Shown here: piece by piece, positions 23,546-47,730 of the stretch
Numbering within the stretch: position 1 is the first letter of the stretch
How the letters are laid out: the number at the start of each line of letters is the position of its first letter
Source: Alphaproteobacteria bacterium
GTDB taxonomy: Bacteria > Pseudomonadota > Alphaproteobacteria > SP197
DNA length: 64,000 nucleotides
Assembly (NCBI GenBank): GCA_965116515.1
Contig: OZ220705.1
Coordinates: 2,399,565-2,463,564 of the forward strand
Direction of reading: 5' to 3'
The notes under the pieces: generated by a model
Databases searched by the model: none
The model's input: only the letters and a program-made list of their open reading frames with translations
Told to the model about the DNA's origin: nothing
Made by a program: the position numbers and the translations under genes

Positions 23546-24544
23546 TCAGGCCCGATCGCCGACGCCTTCCCGTACCCGACGCGCTTTTCCAAGTCCGATC
23601 ACATGAGGGGCCGCAATCGTCTCGTTGTCCGGGAGCGGCTCCTGGCCCGTTGCCTTGGCCTGTTGGTCAACACTCTTGAGCTTGCGCAGCGTGTCGCTGC
23701 CGGCAACGGCTCGCACATCCCCGCCATAGTAGTCGAACCAGGGCATGCCGTGCGCGGCGTATTCCTGTGCCGTCGGAGGTTGTGTTGGCGGCCGCTCTCC
23801 GGTTACCGCCATCCATTGGACGGAGTTGAGCAGCGAGACGAAACAGCGGCTGGCGTGCCGCTGGTCCCAGGCATCGAGCCCGTAGGGATCGTCGTAGATC
23901 TCCTGTTCCATCCGACCGCCTGGTGCAAGGCCCATGCCCATGGACATCTGCACCATGGGTTCCGCCGAAAACAGCACGTCCTCTCGCAACGCGCCCCAGT
24001 TCGATCGGACCGCCTCGTAGCGCTCGGCCTTCATGGGGTAGGCCAACAGCTGAACCCCGCCGTGGACCGCGGCCCCGGTGAGCTGCTCTTCGACCGTGTA
24101 GCCTTCGCCGAGCGGCATGGCAACGAACTGACGGATGACACCTTCCTCCACGCAATAGCCATCGAGCCAGGGCTGCTCGGGCAGCACCGCGTAGTCCTGC
24201 GGGTCGCGGTTCAGCCGTTCGACCCAGGAATCGCCCGTGATCGCGCAGATCTTGCCGGTCGCCACCTTCACGGCGAAGGGATAGTCCGAGTGGAAGTTGA
24301 CCCACATCGCCTCGGCCTGGTGCATCGGCGCGATCACGCCGCCTCGCTCACGCCATGCTTCCGGCAGCCGTGCGGCGTAGTCATCCAGATGCCGGAGCGG
24401 AAACGAGCCCAGGCCCGGCGGCAGCGGATAGTCGTGGCCGTCGTCCGGAATGCGCAGGGTGCGCTGGAACTCGATGGCGCAGCACGCCTCCGCGTGGACC
24501 TCCGGAAAGCTGAATTCCAGGCGGTTGTCTTCAAGCACGATCAT
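23546..24544 (-). CDS. Hypothetical protein (332 aa), no recognisable family. Likely co-transcribed with the upstream XRE regulator.
   Basis: RBS GAGGAG 8 nt before the ATG. This RBS lies inside the last codons of the XRE gene, with a 12-bp gap between the two genes. Confidence 0.6.
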   Translation of the reverse strand: MIVLEDNRLEFSFPEVHAEACCAIEFQRTLRIPDDGHDYPLPPGLGSFPLRHLDDYAARLPEAWRERGGVIAPMHQAEAMWVNFHSDYPFAVKVATGKICAITGDSWVERLNRDPQDYAVLPEQPWLDGYCVEEGVIRQFVAMPLGEGYTVEEQLTGAAVHGGVQLLAYPMKAERYEAVRSNWGALREDVLFSAEPMVQMSMGMGLAPGGRMEQEIYDDPYGLDAWDQRHASRCFVSLLNSVQWMAVTGERPPTQPPTAQEYAAHGMPWFDYYGGDVRAVAGSDTLRKLKSVDQQAKATGQEPLPDNETIAAPHVIGLGKARRVREGVGDRA

Positions 24545-24556
24545 GGGGGTTTCTCC

Positions 24557-24910
24557 TCACCATTTGCCGTCTCGCACCTCGCGCACCACCCGTAGCACCG
24601 CCTCGTCGGGCGCTTCCTTCAACTGACGGATCAGGTCGGCGAACAGGCGTGGACGTTTGCGGATGATGGTCTGCAGGTCGCCGGACACCTTGCCGGCCAG
24701 CGCCAGCATGATGTCCGGATCCTCGCCGAGCTCCTTCGCAAGCCTGACCGCCGTCGCCTCCGACGGCGGTGCCACCTCACCACGCTCGATCTTGCTCAGG
24801 TACGCCGGCTCGATGCCGACCCGCCCGGCCACCTGGCGCACCGAATAACGCCGGTCGTCCTCACGCAGGCGTTCGCGGATGTCGCGGATGGTTTGTCCGA
24901 ATTGCGTCAT
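24557..24910 (-). CDS. XRE-family helix-turn-helix transcriptional regulator (118 aa).
   Basis: HTH_3 pattern (SVRQVAGRVGIEPAYLSKIERGE). Start chosen at ATG 24910, which has no RBS and sits immediately after a consensus promoter (leaderless). Confidence 0.75.
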   Translation of the reverse strand: MTQFGQTIRDIRERLREDDRRYSVRQVAGRVGIEPAYLSKIERGEVAPPSEATAVRLAKELGEDPDIMLALAGKVSGDLQTIIRKRPRLFADLIRQLKEAPDEAVLRVVREVRDGKW

Positions 24911-24916
24911 GTGTCG

Positions 24917-24945
24917 TATATAGTACACGTTATGAGAACTGTCAA
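24917..24945 (-). promoter_or_regulatory. Sigma70-like promoter for the XRE gene: TTGACA, a 17-nt spacer, TATATA, then 6 nt to the ATG (leaderless transcript).
   Basis: Read directly on the minus strand: aacTTGACAgttctcataacgtgtacTATATAcgacacATG. This is the only AT-rich patch in the region. Confidence 0.45.
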
Positions 24946-25427
24946 GTTCCCGGACCAGGCGGATGCAATCGGGAGAGGCCCTGCGGATCCACCCGCCTGT
25001 GCTTGCTGCCTTCCCGGCGGTTCCCGGTTTCGTCACGTCCGAAATCCCGGAGGGGCACACGCGGCCGAAGTGAACTGCGCCCGGGTCGAGGGATCGTTCC
25101 CGTGACTATCAACATCACGCAAGACGACCGCTGCGCCCTTCAGGCGCTCGCCGTCGGTGATGGCAGGTCACGGCCGAGCATCTTCGACCGCGGTTCCTAT
25201 TCCACGTCCGAGACCAGAAGATAGCCGCGGTTTTCGACGGTATCGAATGTCCGCATGGCCGCGATCAGGTCGTCGGACCTGACCCACACCCAGGGCGCAC
25301 CTGCGGTGCTGAACCAAAAGTGTAACACATTGAAACAAAACACGTTCTCTCTCAAGCACTTTCGCCGGGGAAATGGATTCACCTCGTTTCCACTTCCCCC
25401 GGTGCAACAGTAACCGAGGAGAATGCC

Positions 25428-26564
25428 ATGGCGAAGAGCCGTCTTACGCAACGGCGGGTCGATGATCTGACACCGAGAAAGAAGCCCCTGGACGTGCGCG
25501 ATTCCGCCATCCGGGGATTTGGCATCCGTGTCCTGCCGTCAGGCCGCAAGTCTTTTTTCCTCCACAGTCAGGTCGACGGCAAGAGGGTCTGGCAATTGAT
25601 AGGCGATGCTCGCGCCATGACCCTGGAGTACGCCCGGGAACAGGCAACATCCCTACTGGCTTCACGGTGCCGGAGTGATGAAGTATCGCCTGCCGCTACC
25701 GCATCCATACTGTTCGAGGATGTCGCGGATGAGGTCTTCCGCCGTTACAAGCGGCGCTGGAAACCACGGACACTGGAAGTCAACCTCGGCTATTACAGGA
25801 ACCAGATCCTGCCGTGGTTCAAGGGTTACGCCATAGGGGACATCACGCAACACGACATTCGGCGATGGTTTGCTTCGCTCCATGCGACCCCCGTAGCTGC
25901 GGACCGATCGGCGCCGGTTCTCTCCGTGATCCTTCGACAGGCCGAGGTCTACGGATATCGCTCCGAGGGCTCCAATCCTTGCACCGGCATCAAGCGCTAT
26001 CGCCGGCGCAATCGAGAGAAGTTCCTCAACGACGACGAGATTCGGCGGTTGAGCCGCGTTCTCGACAAGAAGGTTGCGAAGCATCCTGTGTTGACCGCGA
26101 TCGTGCGATTGCTTCTCCTGACGGGATGCAGGAAATCGGAAATCCTCAACCTCCGGTGGTCGGACTACCGAGAGGGCAGGCTTTACCTGTGCGACGGCAA
26201 GACGGGGCCGCGCACGGTATGGCTGTCATCGCCCGCGCGCCGGATTCTTGATGGGCTGCCCCGAAGAGGTCACTGGATGTTCCCGTCTCCTCGTGGGGAA
26301 TCCCATCTTTCGAAGGCAACGCTCTACCAATTCTGGCGCGACGTGCGTGCCGAGGCGGGCATGGTCGATGTCCGTTGCCACGATCTGAGGCACACCTACG
26401 CCTCGGTGGCATTGGCCCATGGCGAGACAATTCTCACCATCGGCAGGCTCCTTGGCCACAATGATCCGGCGACTACGCTGAAGTACACGCATCTTGCCGA
26501 CGCTTCGGTCCACGAGGCAGCGGAGGCTCTTGTTCCAATCCTTGGCGGGGAGGGGTGGCCATGA
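25428..26564 (+). CDS. Tyrosine-type site-specific integrase (P4-like, with an N-terminal arm-binding DUF4102-like domain).
   Basis: Catalytic box R...HDLRHTYAS...LGH...Y near the C-terminus; RBS GAGGAG. Confidence 0.9.
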   Translation: MAKSRLTQRRVDDLTPRKKPLDVRDSAIRGFGIRVLPSGRKSFFLHSQVDGKRVWQLIGDARAMTLEYAREQATSLLASRCRSDEVSPAATASILFEDVADEVFRRYKRRWKPRTLEVNLGYYRNQILPWFKGYAIGDITQHDIRRWFASLHATPVAADRSAPVLSVILRQAEVYGYRSEGSNPCTGIKRYRRRNREKFLNDDEIRRLSRVLDKKVAKHPVLTAIVRLLLLTGCRKSEILNLRWSDYREGRLYLCDGKTGPRTVWLSSPARRILDGLPRRGHWMFPSPRGESHLSKATLYQFWRDVRAEAGMVDVRCHDLRHTYASVALAHGETILTIGRLLGHNDPATTLKYTHLADASVHEAAEALVPILGGEGWP

Positions 26565-27709
26565 CGCGGAAGATGCGTTTGAGCGATCGCACTGTTGCCC
26601 GGCTCGGTGCGGCGTCGATCGAATACACGGTGTGGGACATGCGGATCACGGGTCTCGGTGTCAGGGTCCGGCCTTCCGGCCACCGGTCGTTCGTTGTGCT
26701 GGACGACCGTAAAGGCCCCTCGAAACGCCGGGCTCTCGGTCCCGTGACACACATGACCGTCGACGAAGCGCGGTCCCGGTGTCTCGCCATTCAGTCCAGC
26801 GACATGGACCTTCTCGACGACAAGCCCCCGGTTCCCGTGCCGCTCTTCCGCGACTTTGTCGCCAACGCCTGGCGATCCGAATGTTTCGATCGTCTCAAGC
26901 CATCCACTCAGCGTCGGACCCGCAGTGCACTCAGAAATCATCTGTTGCCGGCCTTCGGTGACATGCCGCTCGACCGGATCGGACGAAGGGAGGTGATGGC
27001 GTGGTTCGATACCTACAGTGGAGTGGCGCCAGGCGGCGCCAACCGGGTTCTCGATGCGCTGCGCCAGATTCTCAGTTACGCGGTGGCTTACGGTCACATC
27101 AAGACCAATCCGGCAAGCGGATTGCGTCGGAACCCGAAACGCAAGTTCAACCGGTTCCTGTCCCGGGACGAGGCCCGCCGCCTGCATGCCGAACTGGACC
27201 AATTGGTTGCCGAACGGCCAGCGCGGACGGCACAGGCCGACATCATCCGCCTGCTCTACTGCACGGGATGCCGCTGCAGCGAGATCCGGACACTCAGGTG
27301 GTGCGAGGTCGGCACGGCCACCCTTGATCTTGAGGACAGCAAGACGGGCCCGCGGAAGGTCTACCTGAACAGCGAGGCCCGGCGGATCATCGAACGCCAG
27401 CCCCGGACTGGCAGCGACTACGTCTTTCCGTCCTCATCCGATCCGACCCTGCCCGTATCGGAATCCATGCAACTCTGGTTCACCCTCCGCAAGCGGGCCG
27501 GCATCGATGATGTTCGTCTCCATGATTTGCGTCACAACTATGCCTCGCAAGCTGTTCTGAACGGTGTTCCGCTTCCGACCGTGGCGCGGCTGCTTGGTCA
27601 CCAGCAGGTTTCGATGACCCTACGCTATGCGCATGTTGCCGACCGGGAAGTCGAGGCTGCAGCCGAACGGATCGGAGGTGCAATCTCGGCAATCTGCCTG
27701 GGAGTCTGA
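26561..27709 (+). CDS. Second tyrosine-type integrase, a paralogue of the upstream one in tandem; overlaps its stop.
   Basis: HDLRHNYAS...LGHQ...Y motif. Same architecture as the first integrase but only about 35-40% identical. Confidence 0.9.
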   Translation: MTRKMRLSDRTVARLGAASIEYTVWDMRITGLGVRVRPSGHRSFVVLDDRKGPSKRRALGPVTHMTVDEARSRCLAIQSSDMDLLDDKPPVPVPLFRDFVANAWRSECFDRLKPSTQRRTRSALRNHLLPAFGDMPLDRIGRREVMAWFDTYSGVAPGGANRVLDALRQILSYAVAYGHIKTNPASGLRRNPKRKFNRFLSRDEARRLHAELDQLVAERPARTAQADIIRLLYCTGCRCSEIRTLRWCEVGTATLDLEDSKTGPRKVYLNSEARRIIERQPRTGSDYVFPSSSDPTLPVSESMQLWFTLRKRAGIDDVRLHDLRHNYASQAVLNGVPLPTVARLLGHQQVSMTLRYAHVADREVEAAAERIGGAISAICLGV

Positions 27710-27786
27710 CGGATTTGAGCAATGCGGTTCCCCTTGTATCATGGTGCCTCAAGATGCCATGTCCAAACGATCGGGGAGTGTGATTC

Positions 27787-28836
27787 ATGAGCGTACTGGC
27801 ACATGTCGTTCTTGAACAGGGCGAGCCCGCTGCAACGCAGGCCCTGGCCTACATACTCAACTCGCATCCGGAGATCGCACGGGCGTTCGTCGGACTGTTG
27901 CGAGATGCCAATATCGAGTTCGAGCCCGGGCGCGTCGAGGCCGAACAGGGCATTGAAGACGGCTGTCCGGACCTGACGATCCACGACAGCGGGGGTCGTG
28001 TGCGGATCTTCGTGGAAAACAAGTTCTGGGCCGGTCTGACCGACGCGCAACCGGTATCCTATCTCAGGGACCTGCCGGAGGATCCTCCCTCCGCTCTCAT
28101 CTTTGTCGTTCCCGAACAGAGAGTGTCCACGGTCTGGAACGAACTCGGCCGGCGATGCGGACAAGCGGAACTCGAATGGGAGGACACGTTCAGCTACGGC
28201 TCCGTGAAGAGTGCCCGGGTCGGCCGCAAGACCCTGTTGATCGCCAGCTGGAGGGTCATCCTGGAGAGACTGCGGGACACCGCCCGCTCGGCGGGACACG
28301 ACACCATCGAAAACGACATCCTGCAGTTGCAGGGGCTGACGGGCCGGATAGATTCAGAGGCGTTCCTGCCGCTCCGCGAGGAAGAGGGCACCGATCAGGA
28401 GACGGCGCGCCGCCTGGTCAACTACGTTGAATTGATCGAGGACATCATCAGCAAACTCGTAGACGCCGAAATCGCCGACATCGAGGGATTGCGAGAGGGC
28501 CAAACCTATCATTTCACCGGCCGTTACTTTCGCATCCACGCATACGACAAATTCGAATCAAGGCTCGGGATTGACCTCCTTGCGTGGCGTGACGAGGGCA
28601 TCTCCCCTTTGTGGTGGAGGTTCAGCCCAAAGACCGGAGTTGTCGGCGACCACTTCAAGGCAATCCCCGAACTCTTCAATGACGTGAGGCGTCGCCACGA
28701 CGGGCTGCATGTTCCCATCCGCCTCAAGACCGGCGTCGAAAAGGACAAGGTCATCGACGACGCCGTCGCGCAGATGAAACGAGTTGCGGACAAAGTGCTG
28801 AAGACAGTTCCACGCCAGAAGCCCGCGCTCCGCTGA
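27787..28836 (+). CDS. Hypothetical protein with an N-terminal PD-(D/E)xK nuclease-like motif (349 aa).
   Basis: Motif CPDLTIHDSGGRVRIFVENKFWAGLTDAQ (D...E-x-K spacing typical of the restriction-endonuclease fold). RBS GGGGAG; first gene after the integrases. Confidence 0.6.
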   Translation: MSVLAHVVLEQGEPAATQALAYILNSHPEIARAFVGLLRDANIEFEPGRVEAEQGIEDGCPDLTIHDSGGRVRIFVENKFWAGLTDAQPVSYLRDLPEDPPSALIFVVPEQRVSTVWNELGRRCGQAELEWEDTFSYGSVKSARVGRKTLLIASWRVILERLRDTARSAGHDTIENDILQLQGLTGRIDSEAFLPLREEEGTDQETARRLVNYVELIEDIISKLVDAEIADIEGLREGQTYHFTGRYFRIHAYDKFESRLGIDLLAWRDEGISPLWWRFSPKTGVVGDHFKAIPELFNDVRRRHDGLHVPIRLKTGVEKDKVIDDAVAQMKRVADKVLKTVPRQKPALR

Positions 28837-28890
28837 AAGGGCAAGACCGCCCGGTCCGCTTGCCGGGACCAGGCCGGACGAGCACGGGCA

Positions 28891-29817
28891 TCATCGGACA
28901 TTTCGTCCGGGCTCGCTGCCGACGACTGTGAGCCAGGCAGGATCGCCGTCTTCCCGAGTGGTCCAGAAATCATCGCTCACGCGCTCGTCGTATGAGCCGG
29001 GCGTCTCCATGCCGAGATGCCGGTAGAAGTCCGTGTCCCCGGGCTTTCCTCTGTAGTACATGAGAATGGCCAAGCCGCCAGGCTTGAGAAGCCATCGGAC
29101 CTTCCTGGACACAAGTTCGGGCGCGCCGATGTAGGAAGGCACGCCGCAGAGAGCGACGACCAGATCGAACCTCTGACGCGGCTTCGGCCAGTAGTCCTCG
29201 AACGCCGTGCGGATCAGACGGCCGCGAAACTCGGGGTGCTTGTCGCCGAAGACACCGAGCATTCCCCGGCTGGGATCGATACCGGCATAGTGCTCCGGAT
29301 CGACATGCCCGAACCTGAAATCGACGAGAGTTCCGGTGCCGCAGCCGATGTCGAGAATGTCGGCATCGGGCTCGATCTCAAGTGATTCGTAGACCCGCTT
29401 GCTCCGCTCGATATCAGATTTCTTCCTGTGCACTCCGAGATCGTAAGCGTCGGCAACGGCCGCATAGGGATCGAATGAAGGCTCATGAATGGCCCTGTTG
29501 ATGAGGATGTGGTCGACGCTCGCCCCCATCGTCCAGTACTTGTAGCCGTTCGCGGAGAAACGACGATACCAGTAACCCCTGAAGAACTCCTCGATGCGCT
29601 CCACGGCCCTCATCTTCCTGAGAGCCTCGACGAACTGACCCTCTGCACGCCATGTGCTCTTGAGCGTGTAGGAATGCGGTGCGCCGGGCATCGTCTTGGC
29701 GAACTGGTACGGGTAATTCTCCAGAAGCTCGGTCAGTTCCGCACAGGTATCGAAGACCGTTTCGCTCCATTCCGGAGCGGTCTCGACAGGACGAAATCTC
29801 TCGTTGTGGAGCGTCAT
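28891..29817 (-). CDS. Class I SAM-dependent methyltransferase with a ~140-aa N-terminal domain of unknown function. This is not a DNA MTase (no (D/N/S)PP(Y/F) motif).
   Basis: Motif I ILDIGCGTG, post-I acidic residue, LLKPGG; ATG 29817 after RBS AGGGGA. Convergent with the PD-(D/E)xK gene. Confidence 0.75.
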   Translation of the reverse strand: MTLHNERFRPVETAPEWSETVFDTCAELTELLENYPYQFAKTMPGAPHSYTLKSTWRAEGQFVEALRKMRAVERIEEFFRGYWYRRFSANGYKYWTMGASVDHILINRAIHEPSFDPYAAVADAYDLGVHRKKSDIERSKRVYESLEIEPDADILDIGCGTGTLVDFRFGHVDPEHYAGIDPSRGMLGVFGDKHPEFRGRLIRTAFEDYWPKPRQRFDLVVALCGVPSYIGAPELVSRKVRWLLKPGGLAILMYYRGKPGDTDFYRHLGMETPGSYDERVSDDFWTTREDGDPAWLTVVGSEPGRNVR

Positions 29818-30105
29818 GTCCTTGTCCCCTGTCAATGTCGGTCAACTCTGATTCACGCGATCGGCGATTTGTGAGTATCGCAACACCATTGACACGCAAC
29901 GATAGCCTGGCCGCATGGCGCCCTTCGAGAAGGGAATGCCGGCAAGGACAGCATGCGCGGCCACGGCATTGCGCAAGGTGTGGTTATCAGCGGTGGCGGA
30001 CTTCCTCGTCAGAGTGGGTCTGCAGATAGTGGTTGAGGTGCGCACTGCGTGTCCCCCGGGCTTCCTTGATCTCCTCGCTCTGTTCCTTGAGCACTCGAAG
30101 AAGGG

Positions 30106-31511
30106 TCATGTCGCGGCGCAGACGGGCTGGGCGAAGAGTATGTCTCGCGGATGTTCGCCGTGTGGAAAGGCCGCGTACCTCGCGAGGCCGGTCTCGTCTG
30201 TCGTTGGTTCGTCAAGGCGGGCGAGCACGTCTCGGCGGGCAAGGCGATAGGCGTCGGCTTCGTCGCGATCAACTCGATACGTGGCGGCGCGAACCGCAGG
30301 GCGTTGCAGGTGGCGACCACAGGACGTCCGATCTTTGATGCCTGGTCGGATGAGCCATGGGTGATCGACGGCGCGGCGGTGCGGGTGTCTCTGGTCTGCT
30401 TCCCCGGGACTGGCGATGCAGACAGGCCGGAGTTGCGCATGGACGGAGAACCCGTCGACGAAATCCATCCCGACCTCACGGCCACGCGCGGCGGGGTTGG
30501 GATCGACCGGAGCGAGCCCCAACGCATCCCTGCGAACATCGGAGCCGTCTTCATGGGCGATACCAAGAGCGGGCCGTTTGACGTTCCCGGAGAACTCGCT
30601 CGGGAGTGGCTTCGCCTTCCGTCGAATCCGAATGGCCGCCCGAATTCCGATGTTCTGAAACCCTGGGTCAACGGCATCGACCTTACCCGCCGTCCGGCGG
30701 GCAAGTAGATTGTGGATTTCGGATGGGAAATGTCGGAGACGGAAGCGACGCTCTACGAAGCACCTTTCGCGCACGTCAGGGAACACGTCTGGTCGATGCG
30801 ACAGCGGAACCGGGCACCGGCAGTCAGCAAGATCTGGTGGCGGCATGAGCGCCCAAGGCCGGAGATGTGGCGGGCGCTGAACGGACTGCCTCGCTACATC
30901 GTGGCCCCTCGCGTTGCCAAGCATCGCTTGTTCGTATGGTGCGATGCTCGCGTTTGCCCCGACAGCACGACCATCGCTATCGCCCGCGACGACGATGTGA
31001 CCCTCGGCATTCTGCACAGCCGGTTTCATGAGGCATGGTCGCTGCGGTTCGGGACGTGGCTCGGCAAGGGCAACGACCCGCGCTACACGCCCACCCCACC
31101 TTCGAGACTTTCCCTTTCCCGGGCGGTCTGTCGCCGGACATTCCCGCCACCGACAACGCGGCCGACCCGCGCGCCGTCGCCATTGCGGATGCGGCCAGGA
31201 GATTGGTCGAGTTGCGCGACCGCTGGCTCAACCCGCCCGAATGGGTGGAGTGGGTGGACGAGACGGTTCCCGGCTATCCGAAACGCCCTGTCGCCCGTGA
31301 TGAAGCAGCGGCGAAGGAACTCAAGGCCCGCACGCTGACCAAACTCTACAATACCCGGCCGCGGTGGCTCGATGATGCCCAACAAGCGCTCGACGCTGCC
31401 GTGGCGGCGGCCTACGAGTGGGATGTGGGAGTTTCCGAGGACGACGCGCTCGAGGCGCTGCTGATACGGAACCGGACGGAACCGGGATCCGCTGGACGGA
31501 CCGGACAATGA
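30106..31511 (+). pseudogene. 3' remnant of a type IIG restriction-modification / MmeI-PglX-like methyltransferase gene (helicase-like and TRD/C-terminal region only). It has an internal stop at 30706-30708 and a frameshift near 31085.
   Basis: Family-typical segments NSIRGGANRR, FDAWSDEPWVIDGAAVRVSL, TFETFPFP and the C-terminal KLYNTRPRWLDDAQQALDAAVAAAYEWD are spread over three frames. The N-terminal nuclease and MTase catalytic domains are absent. Confidence 0.7.
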
Positions 31512-31797
31512 CGGCGGGAGCCGCCGATTGGATCCACCGGCCATCGGAGACCTGGATGATGTTCCTGCGCTCCACCCGTCATCGCCACTCGGAGCCGCCA
31601 TCAGGGAGAAGTGGGGTGGCGGGCAACGGGGCCGCGTGGTCGATCTGATTGATACTGGCGACTGCGACAATCCGGACGATCCGCTCGCTTGCCTCGAGAT
31701 TGCCGGAGAGGATGGCGCGTTGCATGCGTGGTTCCTTGCCAGCGGCATTCGCGCGGGGACACTCTGCGATCCGGAGCTTTCCCCGTCGGTCGATGCC

Positions 31798-31929
31798 ATG
31801 GTTTCGGAGCACCGTCCGAATACACCAGACCATCCGGGCCGGCTGTACGACAGGCATGTTTTCATCTTCATTCCGGAGGAGGAAACGTGGTACCCGTGGA
31901 GGCGTTACCGCGGGCCTCCTGCCGATTGA
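31798..31929 (+). CDS. Small conserved ORF (43 aa) inside the cassette, MVSEHRP...EEETWYPWRRYRG; its counterpart in copy 2 is 61197..61328.
   Basis: Conserved at the amino-acid level between the two copies, with conservative substitutions; no known family. Confidence 0.25.
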   Translation: MVSEHRPNTPDHPGRLYDRHVFIFIPEEETWYPWRRYRGPPAD

Positions 31930-32009
31930 AGGGTGGACGTTGGCGGAGTGCCGCTTCATCGGCGCCTTTCCTTGAAACTGTGCCGGCCTGTGGCAGACAG
32001 GGAGCGACC

Positions 32010-32888
32010 ATGAGAGTTGAGAAATCGTGGCCCGAAGGCACGTTCGTGTGGGAGGGCGAGGAACAGGAACACTATTGCGGCTCGCATTGGGATCCGTTCT
32101 ACGACAGCCCGGGCGATGTTCTCGAAGCCCTGTCCGTCATTATTCCGGACTCGGTGCCTCTGCAGACGTTCGGGGATGCCCGCTCCGGGCCCCATGACAT
32201 TCCCGCAGGCTGGACCACGGGCGGCCATCTCTGCTGGCCGAACTCCAATCGGGGTCTTGTAGCAACGCTGCGTGAGACAGGGAACGATCTCGAACTGACC
32301 AACATATGCCCGTTCGCCGGCGTCGGAATAGAGGCCGGCATCGAGATCGAGAAGGTTCATGTCTGGCCCAGTGGAGCGGAAGCGCAGATCAAAGGCGTCT
32401 GGGGCGGAGCAGCAGTCTCTTTCTTCGATCTCGCCTTTCTCGACAACCGCGCCTGGTACGAGGCCGGAGAACGCCGTCAATTTGACCTCGCGGGAATCGC
32501 CTACGAGGCCGGAGCGCCAAAGGTCGATACGCTGGCCATGGCTCCCGACTCGCCACTGGCGAACTGGCAGCGAGACCATGCCGGGATCGCGGGAGTGGAA
32601 ACCGCGAACATCGGTTTGGAAGGCTCCGGCAATTTTCTTCCCATTGCGGACTGGGACCGTGACGACTACCGGTTTCGCGGCCCGGTCCGCAGCGTGGCCG
32701 CTTTCGACGGCTGGCTTGGACAATCTGGATGGAAGGTAAGGGTCGCGATCATGCAATTTGAAGACGAGTGCGCCGAACTGGACGTTTTCGTGACCGATCG
32801 CGCTTGGCGCGGCAGTGAACCGCCCCTTGTCGGTCAGGATATCGAAGGCAGTCTTTGGTTGCAGGGTCGATTGTGGACTGCCACTTAG
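32010..32888 (+). CDS. Hypothetical protein (292 aa), cassette ORF; its paralogue at 61408..62289 carries a premature stop.
   Basis: RBS AGGGAG 6 nt before the ATG; good codon-composition ORF; no recognisable domain. Confidence 0.6.
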   Translation: MRVEKSWPEGTFVWEGEEQEHYCGSHWDPFYDSPGDVLEALSVIIPDSVPLQTFGDARSGPHDIPAGWTTGGHLCWPNSNRGLVATLRETGNDLELTNICPFAGVGIEAGIEIEKVHVWPSGAEAQIKGVWGGAAVSFFDLAFLDNRAWYEAGERRQFDLAGIAYEAGAPKVDTLAMAPDSPLANWQRDHAGIAGVETANIGLEGSGNFLPIADWDRDDYRFRGPVRSVAAFDGWLGQSGWKVRVAIMQFEDECAELDVFVTDRAWRGSEPPLVGQDIEGSLWLQGRLWTAT

Positions 32889-33123
32889 GTGGCGCTTGTC
32901 GATGGAGAATACGACTTGCAGTTCGCCAACCCCCTTGAAACTGAGATTGGCCTCCCCTGACACTGTGTTGCTCTGGAGCGTCATCCTCTGTCGACTCCCG
33001 CCGCCTTCCAGTGGTTGACCGCTTGCAGATCGGTCAGCGGGGTGAGGACGCCCTCGCCGGGTGGCGTGCTGGAGGATGCGCCGGCCATCGACGACTTCCT
33101 CCGGATACGACCCGACAGCGGGA

Positions 33124-33455: not shown

Positions 33456-34684
33456 TACCAAACCAACTAAGTGATGACTCTTGCGAATGATTCGCATTTG
33501 TATCGTATATGTTGGGTGTGATCGGTGGGGTTATCCTCTATTCTGTGGTTGTCGAGAACACAGAAGGAGGAGCCCATGTCGGCGAAGATCGCTGTGACGC
33601 GCACCGACCACACCCCTGAGAGCCTACGCAAGCTGGCGTTGTCGCACAAGTATCGAGACTGCCGGAGCCGTCTGCGGGCGCTGGCGTTGATGATTGAGGA
33701 CACCTTGTCTCGCGCCGAGACATCGCGTCGTGTCGGCGTTGATGTTCAAACCCTGCGCGACTGGGTTGTGCGCTACAATGAAGCGGGTGTTGACGGCTTG
33801 CGTGATGCTCAACGCCCGGGCCGCCCGCCGAAGTTGGACGCACGTCACAAGGCGCAACTCGTGGCCTGGATGGATGCCGGCCCGGACCTTGACGCCGGCG
33901 AGCCGTGCTGCTGGACGGTTGGCGACATCCGGCGTTGGATCAAGTGCCGCTTTGACATGGACTTCACCCTGGAGGGTGTGCGCCGGATGATCCACCGTCT
34001 CGACTTCCGGCATATGTCTCCACGGCCGATCCACCCTCGGGCAAAGCCTGAGGATCAGGAGAACTTCCGGCAGAACTTCCAACAGTTGGCGATGGCGGCC
34101 CTTCCTGAGGGCGTGTCTGGCAAGGATGTTCTGGTGTACTTCCAGGACGAGGCGCGCATTGGTCAGAAAGGGATGCTCTCACGGGTGTGGGCACGAAAGG
34201 GCACACGCCCGCGCATACCGCGGGACTACCGGTATGGCTACGTCTATCTGTTCTCGGCAGCCTGTCCCGAGACCGGCAACGCGGTCGGACATGTCTGCGA
34301 CAAGGCCAACACCGACGAAATGAACCGTCATCTGCGGGACGTCAGCAGCACGCTTCCCGAGAGCAAACATGCCCTGATGGTCCTCGACGGGGCAGGCTGG
34401 CACCGATCGAAGGACCTGGACATTCCGGCAAACGTCTCACTGCTCCGATTGCCGCCGTACAGTCCGGAACTGAACCCCACCGAAACGCTCTTCTCCGTCC
34501 TGAAACACCGACGCTTTGCGAACCGGGTGTTCGAAAGCGCCGAACATGTCAGGAAAACCGTGACCGAAGTATGGGACACCTTCAGCCACAACTCCGAGGA
34601 AATCATCCAGATCACCAGACGGCAATGGGCCAAAATATGAAATACAGACACAATCGCATCGGTGATTACTTTGTTGGTCTGGTA
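33456..34684 (+). mobile_element. IS630-family insertion sequence (~1.23 kb) with imperfect ~25-bp terminal inverted repeats and a TA target-site duplication.
   Basis: Left end TA|CCAAACCAACTAAGTGATGAC..., right end ...GTTGGTCTGG|TA (reverse complement CCAGACCAACAAAGTAATCAC). TA flanks at 33456-57 and 34683-84. GC content is lower than the surroundings. Confidence 0.75.
33576..34640 (+). CDS. IS630-family transposase (winged-helix HTH plus DDE_3).
   Basis: Strong RBS AAGGAGG. DDE_3 pattern (LVYFQDEARIGQKG ... VLDGAGWHRS ... LPPYSPELNPTE). Confidence 0.85.
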   Translation: MSAKIAVTRTDHTPESLRKLALSHKYRDCRSRLRALALMIEDTLSRAETSRRVGVDVQTLRDWVVRYNEAGVDGLRDAQRPGRPPKLDARHKAQLVAWMDAGPDLDAGEPCCWTVGDIRRWIKCRFDMDFTLEGVRRMIHRLDFRHMSPRPIHPRAKPEDQENFRQNFQQLAMAALPEGVSGKDVLVYFQDEARIGQKGMLSRVWARKGTRPRIPRDYRYGYVYLFSAACPETGNAVGHVCDKANTDEMNRHLRDVSSTLPESKHALMVLDGAGWHRSKDLDIPANVSLLRLPPYSPELNPTETLFSVLKHRRFANRVFESAEHVRKTVTEVWDTFSHNSEEIIQITRRQWAKI

Positions 34685-39000: not shown

Positions 39001-39219
39001 ATGTGGCTGACCAACTACGCGCTTCGGGTGCTGATGTACATCACCGTCAACGGCGAGGGGCTCGCCACGATCCGGGAGACTGCGGAGCGCTACGGCATCT
39101 TGAACAGCCACCTGACCCGGGTGGACCGGGACCTCGGCCGCGCCGGGTTCGGCGAGACGGTTCGCGGTCGGGGCGGCGGGCTGAGGCTGGCGAGGTCGGC
39201 ACCGACACTATTGATCTAA
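39001..39219 (+). pseudogene. N-terminal fragment (72 aa) of an Rrf2-family transcriptional regulator, truncated at a junction with an integrase fragment.
   Basis: MWLTNYALRVLMYITVNGEGLATIRETAERYGILNSHLTRVDRDL matches the Rrf2 wHTH; the ORF stops exactly where integrase-derived sequence begins. Confidence 0.6.
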
Positions 39220-39473
39220 CTGACGGCAAGACAGGACCACGGAAAGTCTACCTTAACAGCGAAGCCCGAGGGATCATCGAACGCCAACCCCGAACGGGCA
39301 GCGATCATGTCTTCCCCTCGCCCTTCGATCCAACGTCGCCGATATCGGCGGGATCCATGCAACTCTGGTTCACCCTCCGCAAACGGGCCTGCATTGAGGA
39401 CGTGCGTCTCCATGATTTGAGGCATTATTCCCGGATTCGGCTTATTCCGGGTATCCTGGGCATGAACTCTTGA
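39210..39473 (+). pseudogene. 3' fragment of a tyrosine integrase gene, homologous to nt 27330-27560 of integrase 2.
   Basis: Encodes ...DGKTGPRKVYLNSEARGIIERQPRTGSDHVFPS...MQLWFTLRKRACIEDVRLHDLRH then diverges. About 80% nucleotide identity to the integrase-2 segment. Confidence 0.7.
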
Positions 39474-39553: not shown

Positions 39554-39850
39554 ATGTCGCCAGCGAAAAGGAGAAGAGCGATGTCAATAGAGTATTACTT
39601 CCCCAGCCGAACCAGCCAGCGGTGGTTGGGTGTCGGTCCACTGGCCGAGGATCTCGACCAGTTCGCCGCGTCCCTTGCGGCACAGCGATATGCCCGCCAA
39701 TCGGCGGCAAGCAAGCTGCGGCTCGTGCGCAATCTCAGTCGGTGGCTCGAGCACCAGGGCCTGGGGATCGAAGCACTTGACGAACCGCGCAGCCGCCTGC
39801 GTTCCGGGCGCGCTTATCGGCGCACGCCATGCTTCACCAACGCGCGGTGA
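39554..39850 (+). pseudogene. Possible N-terminal (SAM-like domain) fragment of another tyrosine recombinase, truncated by the end of the giant autotransporter gene.
   Basis: Weak similarity to phage-integrase N-terminal core-binding domains; the ORF runs into the opposite-strand giant CDS. Confidence 0.3.
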
Positions 39851-42800
39851 TCTCGAACCCGACCGTGTGCTCCGGCGCAGTCCAGTCGTTCTTGCTGCGC
39901 GTCGCGCGTACGCTGAACGACAGATCCGGCGCGTCCGCTTCCGGCGTCAGCCGCCAGCCGAGGCTGTAGTCGCGCTGGTCGGCGGCAAGACCGAGCCCGG
40001 CATGCGGACTGCCGGTCCAGCGCTCGCCGAGGGCCGGCAACCCCCAGGCCGCCTCCAGCGTCCAGCGGGACGCGGCCTCGCTGCCCGCGCGATCCTCCAG
40101 CATCGCCGGCTGGAACAGCGCGTCGAGGCCGCCGGTGGCCTGCCCGCCGAACTCCTGGCGCAGGCTCAGCGACGGACCCCGCCCGCTCGCCGGGTCCGGA
40201 TCGAAGGCAAGCGAGGCCGCATAGCCCCGGTCCTTCAGGTCGTCGTTGCCGTGCGCGATCAGCGTGCGGCCCGAGACGTCGAGCGACAGGCCCAGCGCCG
40301 GGTCGCTCCACGCGATCCCGCCGCCGATCTCGACCCCGAAGCCGGTCTCGGCGTCGCCGCCGTCATGGCGCGCGCCGATCTCCAGCTTCGGCACAAGGCT
40401 GCCGCCGCCTTCAAGGGCCATGCGGTAGCTGCCCTCCAGGCCGAGCCTGAGCCGGGTCGCGTCGGAGTCCGACGTCGCGAGGTCGCGGGTCTTCTCAGAC
40501 GAGGTCCGCGTCCACAGCGCGTCCGAGGTCACCGCCAAGGCGGGACCGCTGCCCTCCGCCGGGAGCGCCAGCAGGTCGCCCCTGAGGCCCGCCGCCGCCA
40601 TGCTCCAGCTGGTGTCGGACTTGTAGCTGCCGCCGAGCGCGGTCTTCAGCGTCACCTCGCCCGTGCCATAGCCCGCCGCGCCCCAGAGCTTCAGACGCTC
40701 CGAAGCCTGCAACGCCGCATAGGGGATCGCCGCCGTCAGCGACGCCTCCACACTGCCGTCGCCCGCGCGCAGGGCGCCGCTGCAAAGACCGCTGTCCACG
40801 CCGTCGGGACAGCTCTGGCCGTCGGGACGGGGGCTGACATCGCTGTCGCGGTAATCGCCCTCGCCCGCGCTCTGCACGAGCGCCAGGCCGACCAGCCACT
40901 TGCCCCGGACATAGTCCGCGCCCAGCATGCCGGTGGTGACCGTGCCGTCGAGCGAGAACGTCCCCTCGCGGCCGTCGAAGCTGCTCTGCGCCGCCCGGCC
41001 CCAGAACGCCATGCTGCCGCCCGAGCCGTCCGCCGCGCCGGTCAGCGAGAAACTCGAGCCCAGCAGCGCCTCGCGGCCCGTCATGCCGCGCGATTGCGGC
41101 TGCATTCCGTCGAAGCCGCTGCCGAACCCGGCCGCGTCATGACCGAAGCCGCCCGGGCCGGACTGGCCGCCGAACGCCTGCACGACATCGGCCAGCGCCC
41201 GCGCGCCGGTCCCGCCCGGAACAGCGGCGCCGTCCGGCGCATGAGCCGGAGCCGCACTGCCGTTGGCGGCCGGATCGGACGAGAGCGCCTGCCCGGCGAT
41301 CGAGCCCTGCATGCCGGGTGTGCGGTCCGCCGCCATGCGGCCCGCGATCCCGTCCAGCGCCTGCTCCGCAACCGTGCGGGCGAACCGCGCCAGCCACGCC
41401 GCCGGCATCGGGTCGTCGTTCACAATCGTCCCCACCCCCACCGCGTCCGCAATCGGCGCCCCGCTCGCGCTCCACAGCACGAACTCGAACGTCTCCGCCT
41501 CCTCGTCATGGGAGTCGTCGTAGATGTACACCCACACCCGCTTCTCGGTCTCGCCCGCGCGAAAGCCGAGATTCCAGCTGTTGGCAAGGTAGTCCACGTT
41601 CGCTTGCGCCGACACAGGCGTCGACTCGCGGGTTCGGTAGTGCACCGTCACCGGGCGCTCCGACGGGGCGCTGAGCCGGATGGTGAACCACATCAGCCCT
41701 TCGCCTTCCTTCACCGTCGCGTCGGCCACCGAGAGCACCGGACCCGCCGCCGCGTCGTCGTCCGACACCGACACCGTCGCCGCGCCCCGCGAGGACGAGA
41801 CCGTGTAGCCGTCGCCGTCCTTCAGCGTCACCGTGACCGAGCCGTCCGGCTCGTCCACCGCATCGTCCACCGTGGGAACGGAGAAGACCGCCCGGGTCGC
41901 GTCCTTCGCGATCGTCACGCTCCGCGAACCCTCGTCGTCCGCCGCCACATGGTCGCTGCCCGCGGCCTCCGTGACCGAAAGGGTCACCGTCAGATCCGCA
42001 TCCGGCGCGCGGTCCGCGGTCAGCGTGAACGGCGCCGCGCCGCCCTCCGTCACCGACGCCGCATCCGCCGTAATCGACACCGCGGGCGGCGGCAGGTCGT
42101 CGTCTTCGATGGACACGCTGCCAGACGCGGAGGAGCCCACCGTGTAGCCGGCGCCGGCCGCCACCGAGACCGTGACCGAGCCGTCCGGCTCGTCCACCGC
42201 ATCGTCCGCCGTGGGAACGGAGAAGACCGTCCGGGTCTCGCCTTTCGCAATCACGACCGTCGCCGTGCCCTCGTCGTCCGCCGCCACATGGTCGCTGCCC
42301 GCGGCCTCCGTGACCGAAAGGGTCACCGTCAGATCCGCATCCGGCGCGCGGTCCGCGGTCAGCGTGAACGGCGCCGCGCCGCCCTCCGTCACCGACGCCG
42401 CATCCGCCGTAATCGACACCGCGGGCGGCGGCAGGTCGTCGTCTTCGATGGACACGCTGCCAGACGCGGAGGAGCCCACCGTGTAGCCGGCGCCGGCCGC
42501 CACCGAGACCGTGACCGAGCCGTCCGGCTCGTCCACCGCATCGTCCGCCGTGGGAACGGAGAAGACCGTCCGGGTCTCGCCTTTCGCAATCACGACCGTC
42601 GCCGTGCCCTCGTCGTCCGCCGCCACATGGTCGCTGCCCGCGGCCTCCGTGACCGTGAGCGTCACCGTCAGGTCCGCATCATGTGCGCGGTCCGCGGTCA
42701 CCGTGAACGACGCCGCGCCGCCCTCCGTCACCGACGCCGCAGTCGCCGTAATCGACACCGCAGGCGGCGGCAGGTCGTCGTCCGCTATGGACACGCTGCC

Positions 42801-45800
42801 CGATGCAGGGTCGCCCACCGTGTAGCCGTCGCCGGCCGCCACCGTCACGCTCACCGAGCCGTCGGGCTCGTCCGTCTCGTCCCCGGTCGTCGTCAGTGTC
42901 AGCGTGGCGCTGCCCGTCGTCGGAATCTTCACCGATCGGCTGCCCGCGGTCACGCCGAACTCGCCGGCAGTCGCCACGGTCACCGTCACCGCAAGGTCCG
43001 CCGCGGGCGCCGGGTTCGCCGTCACCGTGAACACCGCATCCCCGCCTTCCGTGACGTCCGCACCCGCCGAGACGCTCACCGCCGGCAGGGTCACGGGCGC
43101 CGCTTCCAGCGCCTCCAGCGCAGCGGCCACCGGAACCCACCGTTGCCAGCCTCGGTCCGCATGGGTCTGCGCCTCCGCCGCCGTCATCGCCGTGTAGCCG
43201 TAGCCGTTGTCGTCGCCGAACGCGGCCAGAACCCGCTTCCAGCGGTCCACATGCTCCTGGCCGTGATGCGTCTCCGCCGCATAGCCTCGAACCTGCGCCA
43301 CCAGCGCGGGGTCCACGCCCGGGGTCACGGGATCGGTCACGACCGAATCCGGCACGTTCTGCGTCTTGACCCCGTCGTCGTCCAGCAGCGCCACCGTCAC
43401 CTCGAACGGCTTGCCGACCGTATAGCCGTCGCCTGCCTCGATGCGCCCCACGACCGTGCCGTCGGCCAGGGCGTCGTCGTCCGATATCGTCGTAAGAGTC
43501 CATGTCGCCGAGGTGATCTCCGCCCGGATCGTCACCGTCCCGAGATGCCCGCCGCCGGTGCGGTCGTCCCCCGAGCCCATCTCCTCGTCCGCCGCCACGT
43601 TCACCACGAGATCGCCCGCCGGCGCCGGGTCCGCCGTCACCGTGAAGGTTACGTCGCCGCCCTCCGTCACCGAGGCCCGGTCCGCCGAGATCGTCACCGC
43701 CGGGGGCGTCGCCTCGACCTGCCGGCTCGGCGGGGCGCCAAAGTCCACCACATGCACGAGAGTCCGGCTTTTGTCGCTGTCGAGCGTCGCATGGCTCGGG
43801 CTCGACAGGGTTACGTAAAAGAACTCGGGGTCTTCCGCCACGTTGTCGATGGTGAGCGGAATATCGATCGTCTTCTCCGTCTCCGACGGCCCGAAGGTGA
43901 GGGTGCCCGAGGTATCGGTGTAGTCGCCGGGAGCCGCGGCCGTGGCGCCAACGGTCGCGTATCGAACCGTGACGTTCCTGTTGGTGGCGCCGGTCTTCGT
44001 GACCGTGACGGTGACCGTACCGTGGTGGCGCTCGTGCACGGCGTGGGAGCCGCTCGCGAACCCGATGACGGGAGGGGGGTCGTCGTCGTTCACTGTTATG
44101 AAAGAGGCGTCAAGTTCGGGAAAGAAAAATATTCCAGGATCCAAAGTCGCCCCACTCGGGTTCGTCAGGGCCACATAGAACATCTCGTTCGGCTCATCCG
44201 CGTCGTCGTTGACGATCGGCACCGTGACGGTCTTCTCCGTCTCCCCCGATGCGAAGCTCAGGGTGCCCGAGATATGGGTGAAGTCGGCGGGTGCGGTGGC
44301 TCTGCCGGGGCTTCCGGGTGGGTCAACGAATTCAATGGTCTCATAGTCCACCGTGGCGGCGCCGGCGCCGTTCTTCGTGATCGTGACGGTGACCGCGCCT
44401 TCGTCTTCCCGTACGCTATGAAACCGAGACTTGAACTTGATGAGGGGCGCCGGAGGATGGTTCCTTATTGTCACGAAAGCTCGATTCTCGCCGAGTTGCT
44501 GGTAATACCCGTCACGCAGGGCTACGCCGAATACCTCGTCGGTCTCGACCACGCCGTCGTCGACGATCGGAACGGTGAAGGACTTCACCGTCTCCCCTGC
44601 CGCGAAAGTCAGGGTGCCCTCAACGATGGGGCGGTCGTGGGGCGGTTCGGCGAAGGGCTCGCCCCTGGCAATGGTCAGATACTCAACCTCGCCGGCGCCG
44701 GGGCCGATCTTCCGGACCGAGATGACGGCCGGGCCCTGGTCTTCCCGTACGTAATAGTGCGCGGACGTGAACTCGAAGAAGGGCTGCTTGATTCTCACCG
44801 TCGCAACGCGCTTCGGACCGAGGGCCGCCCCGCTCGGGTTCGACAGGGTAATGGTGAAGTTCTCGTCGCTCTCCGCCGCGCGCCCCTCCGGCGTGACGTT
44901 GTTGACGATCGCAACGGTGACGGTCTTCTCCGTCTCCCCCGATGCGAAGCTCAGGGTGCCCGAGGCGGCGGCGTAGTCGGCAGGCGCGGTGGCCGAGCCG
45001 TTAGAGGTCGCATAGTCCACCGTGGCGGCGCCGCCGCCGAATTTCACGACCCTGACGACGGCCGCGAGTCCTTCGCCCGTGTCTATGGCGTCCCGCTTGA
45101 ACTCGATGAGGGGCGTGTTCCCGTCGTTGTCGTTCACCGCCACGAAAAGCGTGCCCGTGACGGAACCGTAGTCCGCGCCCGATGCGGTGTGCGTCAGCGT
45201 CACGCGGTCCCAGGTGCCGTCGGTATCCTCGCCCGCGCGGAGAGTTACCGTCCGAGGCCTGTGCCAGTTCGACGTGGTGAAGGTCAGCGTGTTCTGGTCG
45301 CCGGCCATGCCGCCGTTGGTGTCCACCGTCACGTCCGTGCCGGAAGCGCCGCCCACCGTCACCGTTACGGCGCCGCCTGCGGGCCTGCTGTTCAGCCTGA
45401 CCGTGTAGGAGGCGCTGCCGCCCTCCGCCACTGTGAGCCTTTCAGCGGGCGACAGGATCAGGCCCGTAGGCCGTGTGGGATGGACCCACACAGAACTTCC
45501 CCACGGCCTTGCGGACCCAGGGCAGACACCCCCTCCATCGGTTGCATTCGACAGGAACACGCGGAAGTGTCCCGGCGCCCCGGAGACCGGCACGGTGAAG
45601 CTCTTCGACGTCTCCCCCTCCGCGAACCGCAGGGTGCCCGCGGTATGGGTGTAGTCGCCGGGCGCGGCGAGCGTGCCGTTCCCGGTCTCATAGTCCACCG
45701 AGGCGGCGCGGGTGGCGGTCCTGGTGACCGTGACGGTGGCCTCGCCTGCTTCGTTGGTCCAGATACCGAAGGAATCCGACGCGAAGTCGAAGACGACGGC

Positions 45801-46158: not shown

Positions 46159-47177
46159 GCCCCCGGACGAACGCACCTCATCGCGCCCGACGGTCACGCC
46201 CAGCGCTCGCGCCGGCGACTCTCCCGCCGTGCGCACCATCGCCCTTGCCGTATCCATCATGGTCATCGTATCGCCTTCGACCCCGTCGCCCGGACCGCCG
46301 ATGCATGCAACGCGCACGCCCGCCGAGCGGCGGCGCTTGTTCCTACGCTACGCCGGGCCCGGCGGAAAATGCAAACAACATCGCCCGTCGCCGTCCGCGT
46401 TGAGGCAGGGTGAGACGCGCTCCACCCTCTCGACCGGGCGCTGGCGGTCGGCGCGATGATCGAGGCGCAGCGCGGACACGTCGATGATCGCGTTGTCGAG
46501 GGTCCCGTCAACGCGCGCGCCGGCCGAGCGATCGGATGCCGTGTCGAATCCCGTTCATGTCGCGGTGCACCGGCATCGACCTGGAGCGGAGCCCTCTGCC
46601 GACCCCCGAGCGGGGCCCGCCGCGCGGCACCAGGTTGCACCAGCCGCCGTCGGCGAGCGCTTTCGCCTTCTTGTTCCAGCGCCGGATCTGCGAGCGCATC
46701 CAGTCGCCGGTGCGCCACTCCCTGACGACCTGCCGGAAGTCCTCCCTGGCGCCCCACACGTCCACCGCGATCTGGCGCGGCTTCCTGCCCCGCCGCAACC
46801 CGTCCATCAGGATCGCCAGGTTGCGGTCCTCCTCGCGCTGCCGCCGGGACGAGGGGACGAACGGCCCGTCACCTGCCAGAATTTGGGCAGCCGGCGCATG
46901 GTGTGCGGCATGCGCAGCCCGAACGGGTGGCGCAGCTCGATGCCCACGCCCTCGGGAAACGGCCCGGCATCGCGCAGCAGGATCTGCACCGCCCGCCCGC
47001 GGTGCTCGATCTTGAGCACGAGGCCGCCGTCGAGCAGCCGCCGCCCCTCGATCGAACCTCCGCCCGCCGCGACCACCGTGGCGAGCGGCGCGACGCCCGG
47101 AGCGATCATCGCCTCGGTCATGCCCTCCTGTATCTAGAAGGGCGAGGCGGGGCCGCCCTCGCCCCGCCGGTCCGCCC

Positions 47178-47400
47178 ATGCGGTAGCTGCCCTCCAGGCC
47201 GAGCCTGAGTCGGGTCACGCCGGAGTCCGACGCCGTGAGGTCGCGCGTCTTCTCCGAGGAGGTCCGCGTCCACAGCGCGTCCGAGGTCACCGCAAGGGCG
47301 GGACCGCCTTCTGCGGGCGGCGCCAGCAGGTCGCTCCGGAGCCCCGCCGCCGCAATGCTCCACGGGTCGCTCGTCGGAGCCCCTGTGACCGCAACCTGCC
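47178..47400 (-). repeat. Dispersed duplicate (~85% identity) of a 220-bp segment of the giant autotransporter beta-domain region (compare 40418-40640).
   Basis: Nucleotide colinearity; encodes ...AAAGLRSDLLAPPAEGGPALAVTSDALWTRTSSEKTRDLTASDSGVTRLRLGLEGSYRM, matching the giant protein. Confidence 0.6.
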
Positions 47401-47514
47401 GCAAACCGCCATCTTCACCAAACCCGCCTTCCACGGCCTCGCCGCAGTCAGCCCGATGGACCCCATCGGGTCACCCGAATGCCCTCATCCACAATGACCG
47501 GACAATCCGGGAAA

Positions 47515-47730
47515 TCAAGGCCCCAGGCGCGCAAGATAATCCGAGGAATCAGTGGTCAAACAGTCCGCGAGACAACACGGATAGTCGTTGCGTCCCTTGC
47601 CGCGTCGCTTCTCCAGAGCCGCGATGAGAGCGTCGTCGGGCAGGGCATCGAGAACCCGTCGCAGGCGCTCGATGTCGTCAAGGCTCTCGACATGGGACCA
47701 GGAAAGGAGTAAGGGAGTGGCTGTCGTCAT
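47515..47730 (-). pseudogene. Possible N-terminal fragment of an IS5/IS1182-family transposase (DUF772-like).
   Basis: ...LSWSHVESLDDIERLRRVLDALPDDALIAALEKRRGKGRNDYP resembles the InsH N-terminal domain; truncated after about 70 aa. Confidence 0.35.

Follow-up and report, generated by a model that had tools for sequence, protein, structure and literature searches.

How did two fragments of a type IIG restriction-modification (RM) gene of the MmeI family come to lie about 30 kb apart in one alphaproteobacterial contig, each beside a copy of the same 1.2-kb unit? The locus is a stretch of 64,000 nt (positions 2,399,565 to 2,463,564 of contig OZ220705.1, assembly GCA_965116515.1, lineage SP197), which is referred to here as the window. 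A first-pass annotation, made from the letters alone, had proposed that a cassette had twice replaced the body of a type IIG gene after about codon 60, either because the site is a recombination hotspot or because the cassette is selfish. Comparison with related loci (L numbers) and proteins (P numbers) indicates that in all likelihood the window holds the remains of two related four-gene defence operons, A and B, decayed by deletion, replacement, point mutation and insertion sequence (IS) activity. The two operons are either paralogous or separately acquired. The apparent selfish cassette would thus be a product of the ordinary decay of two defence operons in a rearrangement-prone island, and the ancestral order of genes would have been MmeI-family type IIG enzyme, 133-amino-acid (aa) protein, 292-aa protein and HNH nuclease.

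Intact operons in related genomes

The complete arrangement is found in L004. Its intact MmeI-family enzyme gene encodes 979 aa, and downstream of it, on the same strand, come a 133-aa gene, the start of which overlaps the enzyme stop codon, a 292-aa gene and a gene for a 232-aa HNH nuclease. The four genes occur in the same order in L090, L011 contains the MmeI, 133-aa and 292-aa genes together with an HNH remnant, and L088 contains an MmeI gene and a 130-aa gene. The HNH genes are intact in L003, L004 and L090. The L004 enzyme is recognised by the PADLOC model REase_MTase_IIG (1e-302) and by the Pfam models MmeI_N, MmeI_hel and MmeI_Mtase, while its matches to MmeI_TRD and MmeI_C are weaker and below threshold. 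In an intact operon the MmeI-type enzyme would methylate and cut as a single chain, with the HNH protein as a second nuclease.

The long direct repeat

Self-comparison of the window confirmed a single long direct repeat (copies 1 and 2 in Table 1). The duplicated unit of about 1.2 kb described in the first-pass annotation is therefore real: pairwise alignment of the copies gives 86.0% identity over 1254 columns with 11 gaps (blastn, E 0.0), and they lie 29.4 kb apart on the same strand, in direct orientation. Such an arrangement could be the result of a recent segmental duplication within the genome, with one copy pasted beside an unrelated MmeI stub. However, a DNA identity of 86% and a dS (synonymous divergence) of 0.29 between the genes for the 292-aa products (79% aa identity; ratio of nonsynonymous to synonymous divergence, dN/dS, 0.37) do not agree with a recent event. 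The copy 1 protein is nearer to proteins from other samples (82-83% identity to P0001 and P0002) than to that of copy 2 (79%), and the copy 2 protein is 96% identical to P0003, its orthologue in a sister strain. In a neighbour-joining tree copy 1 groups with P0001 and P0002, and copy 2 with P0003, so that neither copy is the nearest relative of the other. L089 DNA is about equally near to both (86% identity to copy 1 and 85% to copy 2), and the copies are therefore old. Moreover, copy 2 retains its own HNH remnant and an MmeI leader that is also conserved in L011; each copy is therefore accompanied by parts of an operon of its own, and a recent segmental duplication is improbable.

Operon A

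The earlier description of a surviving C-terminal part of an MmeI-family gene, about 470 codons long and carrying a stop and a frameshift, was borne out in operon A (30121-32888). Of the methyltransferase domain the fragment has only the end, which is followed by the target-recognition and C-terminal domains; these two are homologous to those of MmeI-family enzymes. Codons 1-515 are missing. In tblastn searches residues 516-834 of the L004 enzyme match 30121-31095 (E 2e-112), and residues 825-978 match 31065-31526 (E 1e-45). Identity to the enzymes of L004, L011 and L088 is 59-75% (best E 8e-157), the value for L011 being 75%. The Pfam model MmeI_C matches the fragment with an E value of 4.7e-5, which is under its gathering score. 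The fragment is read in frame 1 from about 30121 and, past a frameshift located within 31065-31095, in frame 3 (about 31065-31511); an in-frame TAG interrupts it at 30706-30708.

The NPPF catalytic motif of the methyltransferase is absent from operon A, the break at 30121 being located just past the motif; in L089 the motif survives, as GNPPFLGG, immediately before the position aligned to 30121. When MmeI codons 56-515 were sought elsewhere in the window, no further MmeI fragment was found at E<=1. A complete N-terminal nuclease domain (MmeI_N) occurs in neither operon, operon A containing none of it and operon B only residues ~15-55. Likewise, an uninterrupted MmeI reading frame of ~900-1000 codons is absent from both, owing to the TAG and the frameshift in operon A and a deletion of ~2.9 kb in operon B.

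The place of MmeI codons 1-515 is filled by genes for a PD-(D/E)XK-like protein and an S-adenosylmethionine (SAM) methyltransferase, whereas L011 has an intact MmeI gene at this position. Operon A would have lost this part of the enzyme through replacement by these two unrelated genes, would afterwards have gained the stop and the frameshift, and would have lost its HNH gene beside an IS630 element, with the 133-aa and 292-aa genes remaining intact. The 285-nt stretch 29836-30120, between the methyltransferase gene and the MmeI breakpoint, has a match of 93% in L001 and no other match among the sequences examined.

The two tyrosine integrases encoded further upstream are 58% and 49% identical in aa sequence to the pair that precedes the intact operon in L011, where the intact enzyme gene lies ~1.9 kb past the integrase pair. 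Integrase pairs near the MmeI operon are located at 25428-27709 in the window, 2535-4756 in L011, 9897-12323 in L090 and 12756-16393 in L088. The presence of such a pair with the MmeI operon in several genomes suggests that the operon travels on a two-integrase island.

The 133-aa gene

Directly behind the pseudogene, the first-pass annotation had placed a degenerate MmeI N-terminus (31528-31670). Comparison of this segment with four MmeI N-termini gave a best E value of 2.7 over 7 residues, at non-homologous positions, so that the similarity is below significance. The segment is actually the first third of an intact 133-aa gene. The open reading frame (ORF) at 31528-31929 aligns end to end with the 133-aa gene of L004 (56% identity, E 2e-44), and homologs of 130-133 aa are located behind intact MmeI genes in L004, L011, L088 and L090 (53-63% identity). 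As the ORF is homologous over its full length to the gene that follows MmeI, the "small conserved ORF" ascribed to the cassette is the 3' two-thirds of this gene; the 292-aa ORF, the other part of the described content, is indeed present. The genes of copy 1 thus sit as they do behind the intact MmeI genes of L004, L090 and L011, and copy 1 is therefore in its native position.

The 133-aa protein has two database clusters only and no match in Pfam, PADLOC or NCBIfam. Its gene occurs only directly behind MmeI-family genes, and because it is found only with that enzyme clade, its product would be a dedicated partner of these enzymes.

Operon B

The N-terminal MmeI fragment reported about 30 kb away from the C-terminal one was recovered in operon B (60814-62455), as was its direct fusion to copy 2. 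The homologous region, 60934-61056, matches residues 15-55 of the L004 enzyme (76% identity, tblastn E 1e-13). The stub ORF begins at 60877 and contains the MmeI N-terminal motif FIAKWRSSELKERSASQENLIDMCRLPGEPTPPG; in blastp searches it matches three intact MmeI N-termini with E values of 6e-20 to 8e-26, and a Pfam scan of it gave no MmeI_N match. At the nucleotide level, L004 4625-4746 matches window 60934-61055 and L004 7655-9045 matches window 61065-62456, the intervening span in L004 that is equivalent to the deletion being about 2.9 kb.

Operon B would have been shaped by a single deletion of ~2.9 kb between codon ~56 of MmeI and codon ~45 of the 133-aa gene, and one internal deletion explains the fusion of copy 2 to the MmeI stub. 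The shared repeat would be the surviving tail of both operons, and its left edge (31664/61062) would be the breakpoint of the operon B deletion. The remnant of the 133-aa gene is inactivated by a TGA at 61127-61129 and a 1-nt indel. The premature TAA previously noticed in the copy 2 ORF is present, whereas its orthologue P0003, in the sister contig L002, reads CAA at this codon and is intact. Operon B would thus have undergone, besides the large deletion, a truncation in its HNH gene and a recent CAA to TAA change in its 292-aa gene. The deletions in these operons probably occurred via illegitimate recombination, and, with the downstream gene retained, loss of the enzyme would have been tolerated or favoured.

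Since the window is apparently metagenome-derived and repeats with 86% identity can mislead assemblers, the junctions might be suspected to be chimeras of metagenome assembly. However, the junction at 30120/30121 is also present in the independent contig L001, a 4.1-Mb contig of a sister strain that is colinear with window 24526-31101 (6.6 kb, 95% identity). The junction at 61056-61064 is also found in the independent contig L002, which is colinear with window 60185-64000 (3.8 kb, 98% identity). The occurrence of the same junctions in these two contigs makes a misassembly highly unlikely.

Table 1. Location of the genes, gene remnants and repeats of operons A and B and their surroundings in the window
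Feature	Position	Strand	Basis and remarks
Tyrosine integrase pair, upstream of operon A	25428-27709	+	Pfam Phage_integrase
PD-(D/E)XK-like gene, 349 aa	27787-28836	+	Pfam
Class-I SAM methyltransferase gene, 314 aa	28891-29835	-	Pfam
MmeI-family type IIG RM pseudogene, operon A	30121-31511	+	C-terminal ~463 codons; tblastn
Intact 133-aa gene, operon A	31528-31929	+	TTG start 17 nt after MmeI stop; full-length homology
Repeat copy 1	31664-32910	+	Codons 46-133 of the 133-aa gene, spacer, 292-aa gene and 22 nt beyond; blastn
Intact 292-aa gene, operon A	32010-32888	+	GGGAG 6 nt upstream of ATG; 73% identity to L004 protein
IS630-family transposase, downstream of operon A at the place of HNH in relatives	33525-34640	+	Pfam DDE_3 (E 1e-25), HTH domains
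Conserved leader and MmeI N-terminal stub (about codons 1-56), operon B	60814-61056	+	tblastn, E 1e-13 to 1e-18
Deletion junction, operon B	61056-61064	+	Out-of-frame join between MmeI codon ~56 and codon ~45/46 of the 133-aa gene
Repeat copy 2	61062-62311		blastn partner of copy 1
Dead remnant of 133-aa gene, codons 46-133	61064-61328	+	tblastn with L004 protein, E 8e-20
293-codon paralogue of 292-aa gene	61408-62289	+	TAA at 61993-61995; 71% identity to L004 protein
HNH endonuclease remnant, residues 18-46	62369-62455	+	tblastn with L004 HNH, 79% identity, E 1e-11

Cassette insertion or operon decay

A selfish or targeted 1.2-kb cassette that enters type IIG genes past codon ~60 and takes the place of the gene body would account for the direct joining of copy 2 to an MmeI N-terminal stub, and for a second, unrelated MmeI N-terminus that is followed by a gene of the 292-aa family (P0186 in L091). 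However, the proposed double replacement fails at copy 1: only copy 2 is fused to a stub, no MmeI N-terminus precedes copy 1, and the latter occupies its native position behind MmeI as in the intact relatives. Each copy has a context of its own, which is the enzyme C-terminus in operon A and the leader, the N-terminal stub and the HNH remnant in operon B. No transposase or recombinase is encoded in the repeat, and neither the 133-aa nor the 292-aa products match a model of Pfam, PADLOC or NCBIfam. Terminal inverted or direct repeats and target duplications were not found at the repeat borders; only chance-level repeats of 12-13 nt were detected, none of them located at the borders or common to both copies. 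Nor are the copies near-identical sequences placed in unrelated sites, since they are 14% diverged, are not sister sequences and both lie in an operon context. Among about 90 loci surveyed, no further fusion of a stub to the cassette was found except in L002, which is the same locus in the sister strain.

The protein P0186 is encoded at 573-1985 of L091 (also in L092 and L093), where it is annotated as a 470-aa protein that reads as MmeI_N plus the family domain. In these three loci a distantly related MmeI-like gene lacks codons ~150-948, and its last ~28 codons remain, out of frame, immediately ahead of a family gene. The family domain is uninterrupted; owing to the deletion, the MmeI stub and the family gene, from residue ~26 of the family onwards, form one ORF, the middle of which is the out-of-frame MmeI C-terminus. 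The presence of the extreme MmeI C-terminus between the stub and the family gene marks an internal deletion, and P0186 appears to represent an MmeI-like gene with such a deletion that reads through into the downstream family gene. A third independent decay of this operon is seen in L089 (1-2631), where one deletion extends from codon ~637 of the enzyme gene into the 133-aa gene and another lies within the latter; the 293-aa gene has remained intact. Judged from these sequences, the decay pattern in the relatives is internal deletion of the enzyme that spares the downstream gene, not cassette insertion, and this sparing may reflect selection. An invading cassette is accordingly a most improbable source of the repeat.

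The locus is prone to rearrangement, as can be seen from the mobile elements in L001 and the independent deletions of the MmeI body in L089 and L091. In L001, the counterpart of window 31101-31986 is replaced by a Tn7/Mu-like transposon (6583-10345) that carries rve, AAA_22 and AAA_25 genes, and the 292-aa gene is interrupted at the equivalent of window position 32618 by an IS91-type element (10979-13479) with an integrase. The transposon has one end that is 90% identical, in inverted orientation, to window 47361-47577, and a related element end therefore lies in the window.

Some points weigh against the proposed decay of two operons. The junction in operon B shares at most a few bases, and microhomology would be no more than a possible mechanism of its deletion. 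Operons A and B may derive either from an old duplication or from two separate acquisitions. Finally, ORFs of the P0186 type could in principle encode real fusion proteins.

The 292-aa protein family

The gene retained by both operons encodes a member of a large family. A protein search with the 292-aa ORF yielded 119 homologs, none with a Pfam domain, and a profile search of a database of 1.84 billion representative proteins retrieved 1,125 clusters at E<=0.001 and 691 at E<=1e-10, the former number being a lower bound for the family. No Pfam, NCBIfam or PADLOC model matches the 292-aa protein, and the family has no match among the cas profiles of the latter two. The search of the literature found no publication naming the 292-aa family or the four-gene operon. 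The family, uncharacterised and named in no library, extends well beyond the window, being present at both restriction and CRISPR loci.

The AlphaFold (AF2) model of the 292-aa protein (predicted local distance difference test score, pLDDT, 91.6; predicted template modelling score, pTM, 0.89) is almost all beta and consists of two barrel-like halves. Foldseek searches with this model returned nothing significant (best E >= 0.008, template modelling score <= 0.31); the top matches at this weak level are similar to the oligonucleotide/oligosaccharide-binding (OB) fold, namely the ModE di-Mop domain, a tandem-OB single-stranded DNA-binding protein (SSB), Rpb8 and LEF-3. The motifs HYxGSHWDPF, VWxSGxEAQI, WDRDDYxFRG and GQDIEGxLWLQG are conserved in the family. 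WDRDDY (residues 215-220), D277 and E279 make up an acidic cluster that is invariant and a candidate catalytic or metal-binding site.

Most members are 355-370 aa long and contain an N-terminal Tudor-like domain of ~50 residues, which matches the Pfam models PcrA_UvrD_tudor (6e-6) and CarD_TRCF_RID (6e-6). When the family profile was compared with the sequences of the PDB, the only match was a weak one to the Tudor domain of the UvrD chain 7egt_B (E 0.32). The proteins of the window belong to the short, Tudor-less form. The idea that the 133-aa protein supplies the short form with a separate Tudor domain found no support: the hhalign probability was 0.6%, and the AF2 model, built from 2 sequences, had a pLDDT of 45, too low to be of use.

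Between operon A and L004 the 292-aa gene has a dN/dS of 0.19. Since this gene is kept while the neighbouring restriction enzyme decays, its product may also act on its own.

Genomic context of the family

The context of the family was surveyed in 82 non-redundant loci. A type IIG gene is located within 5 kb in 19 of them, and in 13 of the 19 it lies upstream on the same strand. It is directly adjacent to the family gene in six loci (L003, L039, L056, L060, L063 and L067), and in three loci and the window the two are separated by the 133-aa gene only. Type I-G CRISPR-Cas operons were found in 15/82 loci, with a long-form gene between cas5/6g (or cas8g) and cas4/1, and CRISPR arrays of 44 and 21 repeats are located downstream in L023 and L038, respectively. 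Long forms inside type I-G operons occur in L023 (9752-10870), L033, L038, L051, L053 and L075, among others. A genome generally has few type IIG genes or type I-G loci, and judged by this rarity their frequencies as neighbours of the family would be far above chance.

WYL regulators, small HIRAN proteins, RtcB, SIR2 with SLFN, and HsdR with GmrSD also recur in the neighbourhood. Modules of a WYL regulator, the family gene and a HIRAN protein, sometimes with RtcB directly upstream, are present in L027, L050, L062, L022, L037 and L071; no restriction or cas genes occur in the flanks examined. The HIRAN protein of this module matches the PADLOC candidate PDC-M03B (4e-17). Adjacency to defence genes on the same strand recurs across unrelated taxa, as for an accessory gene, and by this association the family may represent an accessory gene of defence islands.

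A tentative and somewhat doubtful proposal is that the family serves as an accessory common to several DNA-targeting immune systems, a beta-barrel protein that binds nucleic acid or DNA ends and, in its long form, also RNA polymerase. The systems served may include the MmeI-type and ISP-type type IIG enzymes, type I-G CRISPR-Cas and the WYL/RtcB/HIRAN modules. The Tudor domains of PcrA/UvrD, Mfd and CarD bind the beta subunit of RNA polymerase, and the long form could hypothetically be tethered to the polymerase through its PcrA/UvrD-like Tudor domain. Likeness to these domains is limited to the long forms, the 292-aa protein of the window having no such domain. If true, a component common to restriction and CRISPR loci would be a candidate for cross-talk or for a common regulatory or sensing step.

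Comparison with known systems

The enzyme fragments of the window are 59-75% identical to full-length MmeI-family type IIG enzymes but, unlike these, both enzyme genes are pseudogenes. MmeI-type enzymes are usually regarded as single-gene systems, whereas the intact relatives have three conserved downstream genes, encoding the 133-aa, 292-aa and HNH proteins. Here the gene of an MmeI-type enzyme thus shares a conserved operon of four genes with two unannotated genes and one for an HNH nuclease. PglX of BREX and DrmMI of DISARM are likewise MmeI-like proteins that work with partner genes. The L004 enzyme matches the DrmMI model (1e-70) and, weakly, the PglX models, the type IIG model being the best by far; the window, L004, L090 and L011 contain no PglZ, BrxA/B/C/L or DrmA/B/C genes. 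Stand-alone HNH nucleases have been reported as auxiliary effectors in BREX-type loci (PMC12839542). The type I-G CRISPR-Cas operons (cas3g-cas8g-cas7g-cas5/6g-cas4/1-cas2) that harbour long forms of the family differ from the window, which contains no cas genes.

Other features of the window

A search for tRNA genes as borders of the island found none. A gene on the reverse strand (39834-46064) encodes a 2,076-aa Calx-beta/LapA-like adhesin and contains 339-nt tandem repeats (41791-45750) that are up to 93% identical. A 600-aa ORF, also on the reverse strand (55293-57095) and without a Pfam match, includes six tandem copies of the 18-nt unit TCATCCACCATGGGATCG at 56824-56967. Three pairs of dispersed repeats with 77-92% identity were detected: 40418-40607 and 47176-47362, 48115-48714 and 51599-52049, and 27303-27534 and 39190-39424, the last pair being a C-terminal segment of an integrase.

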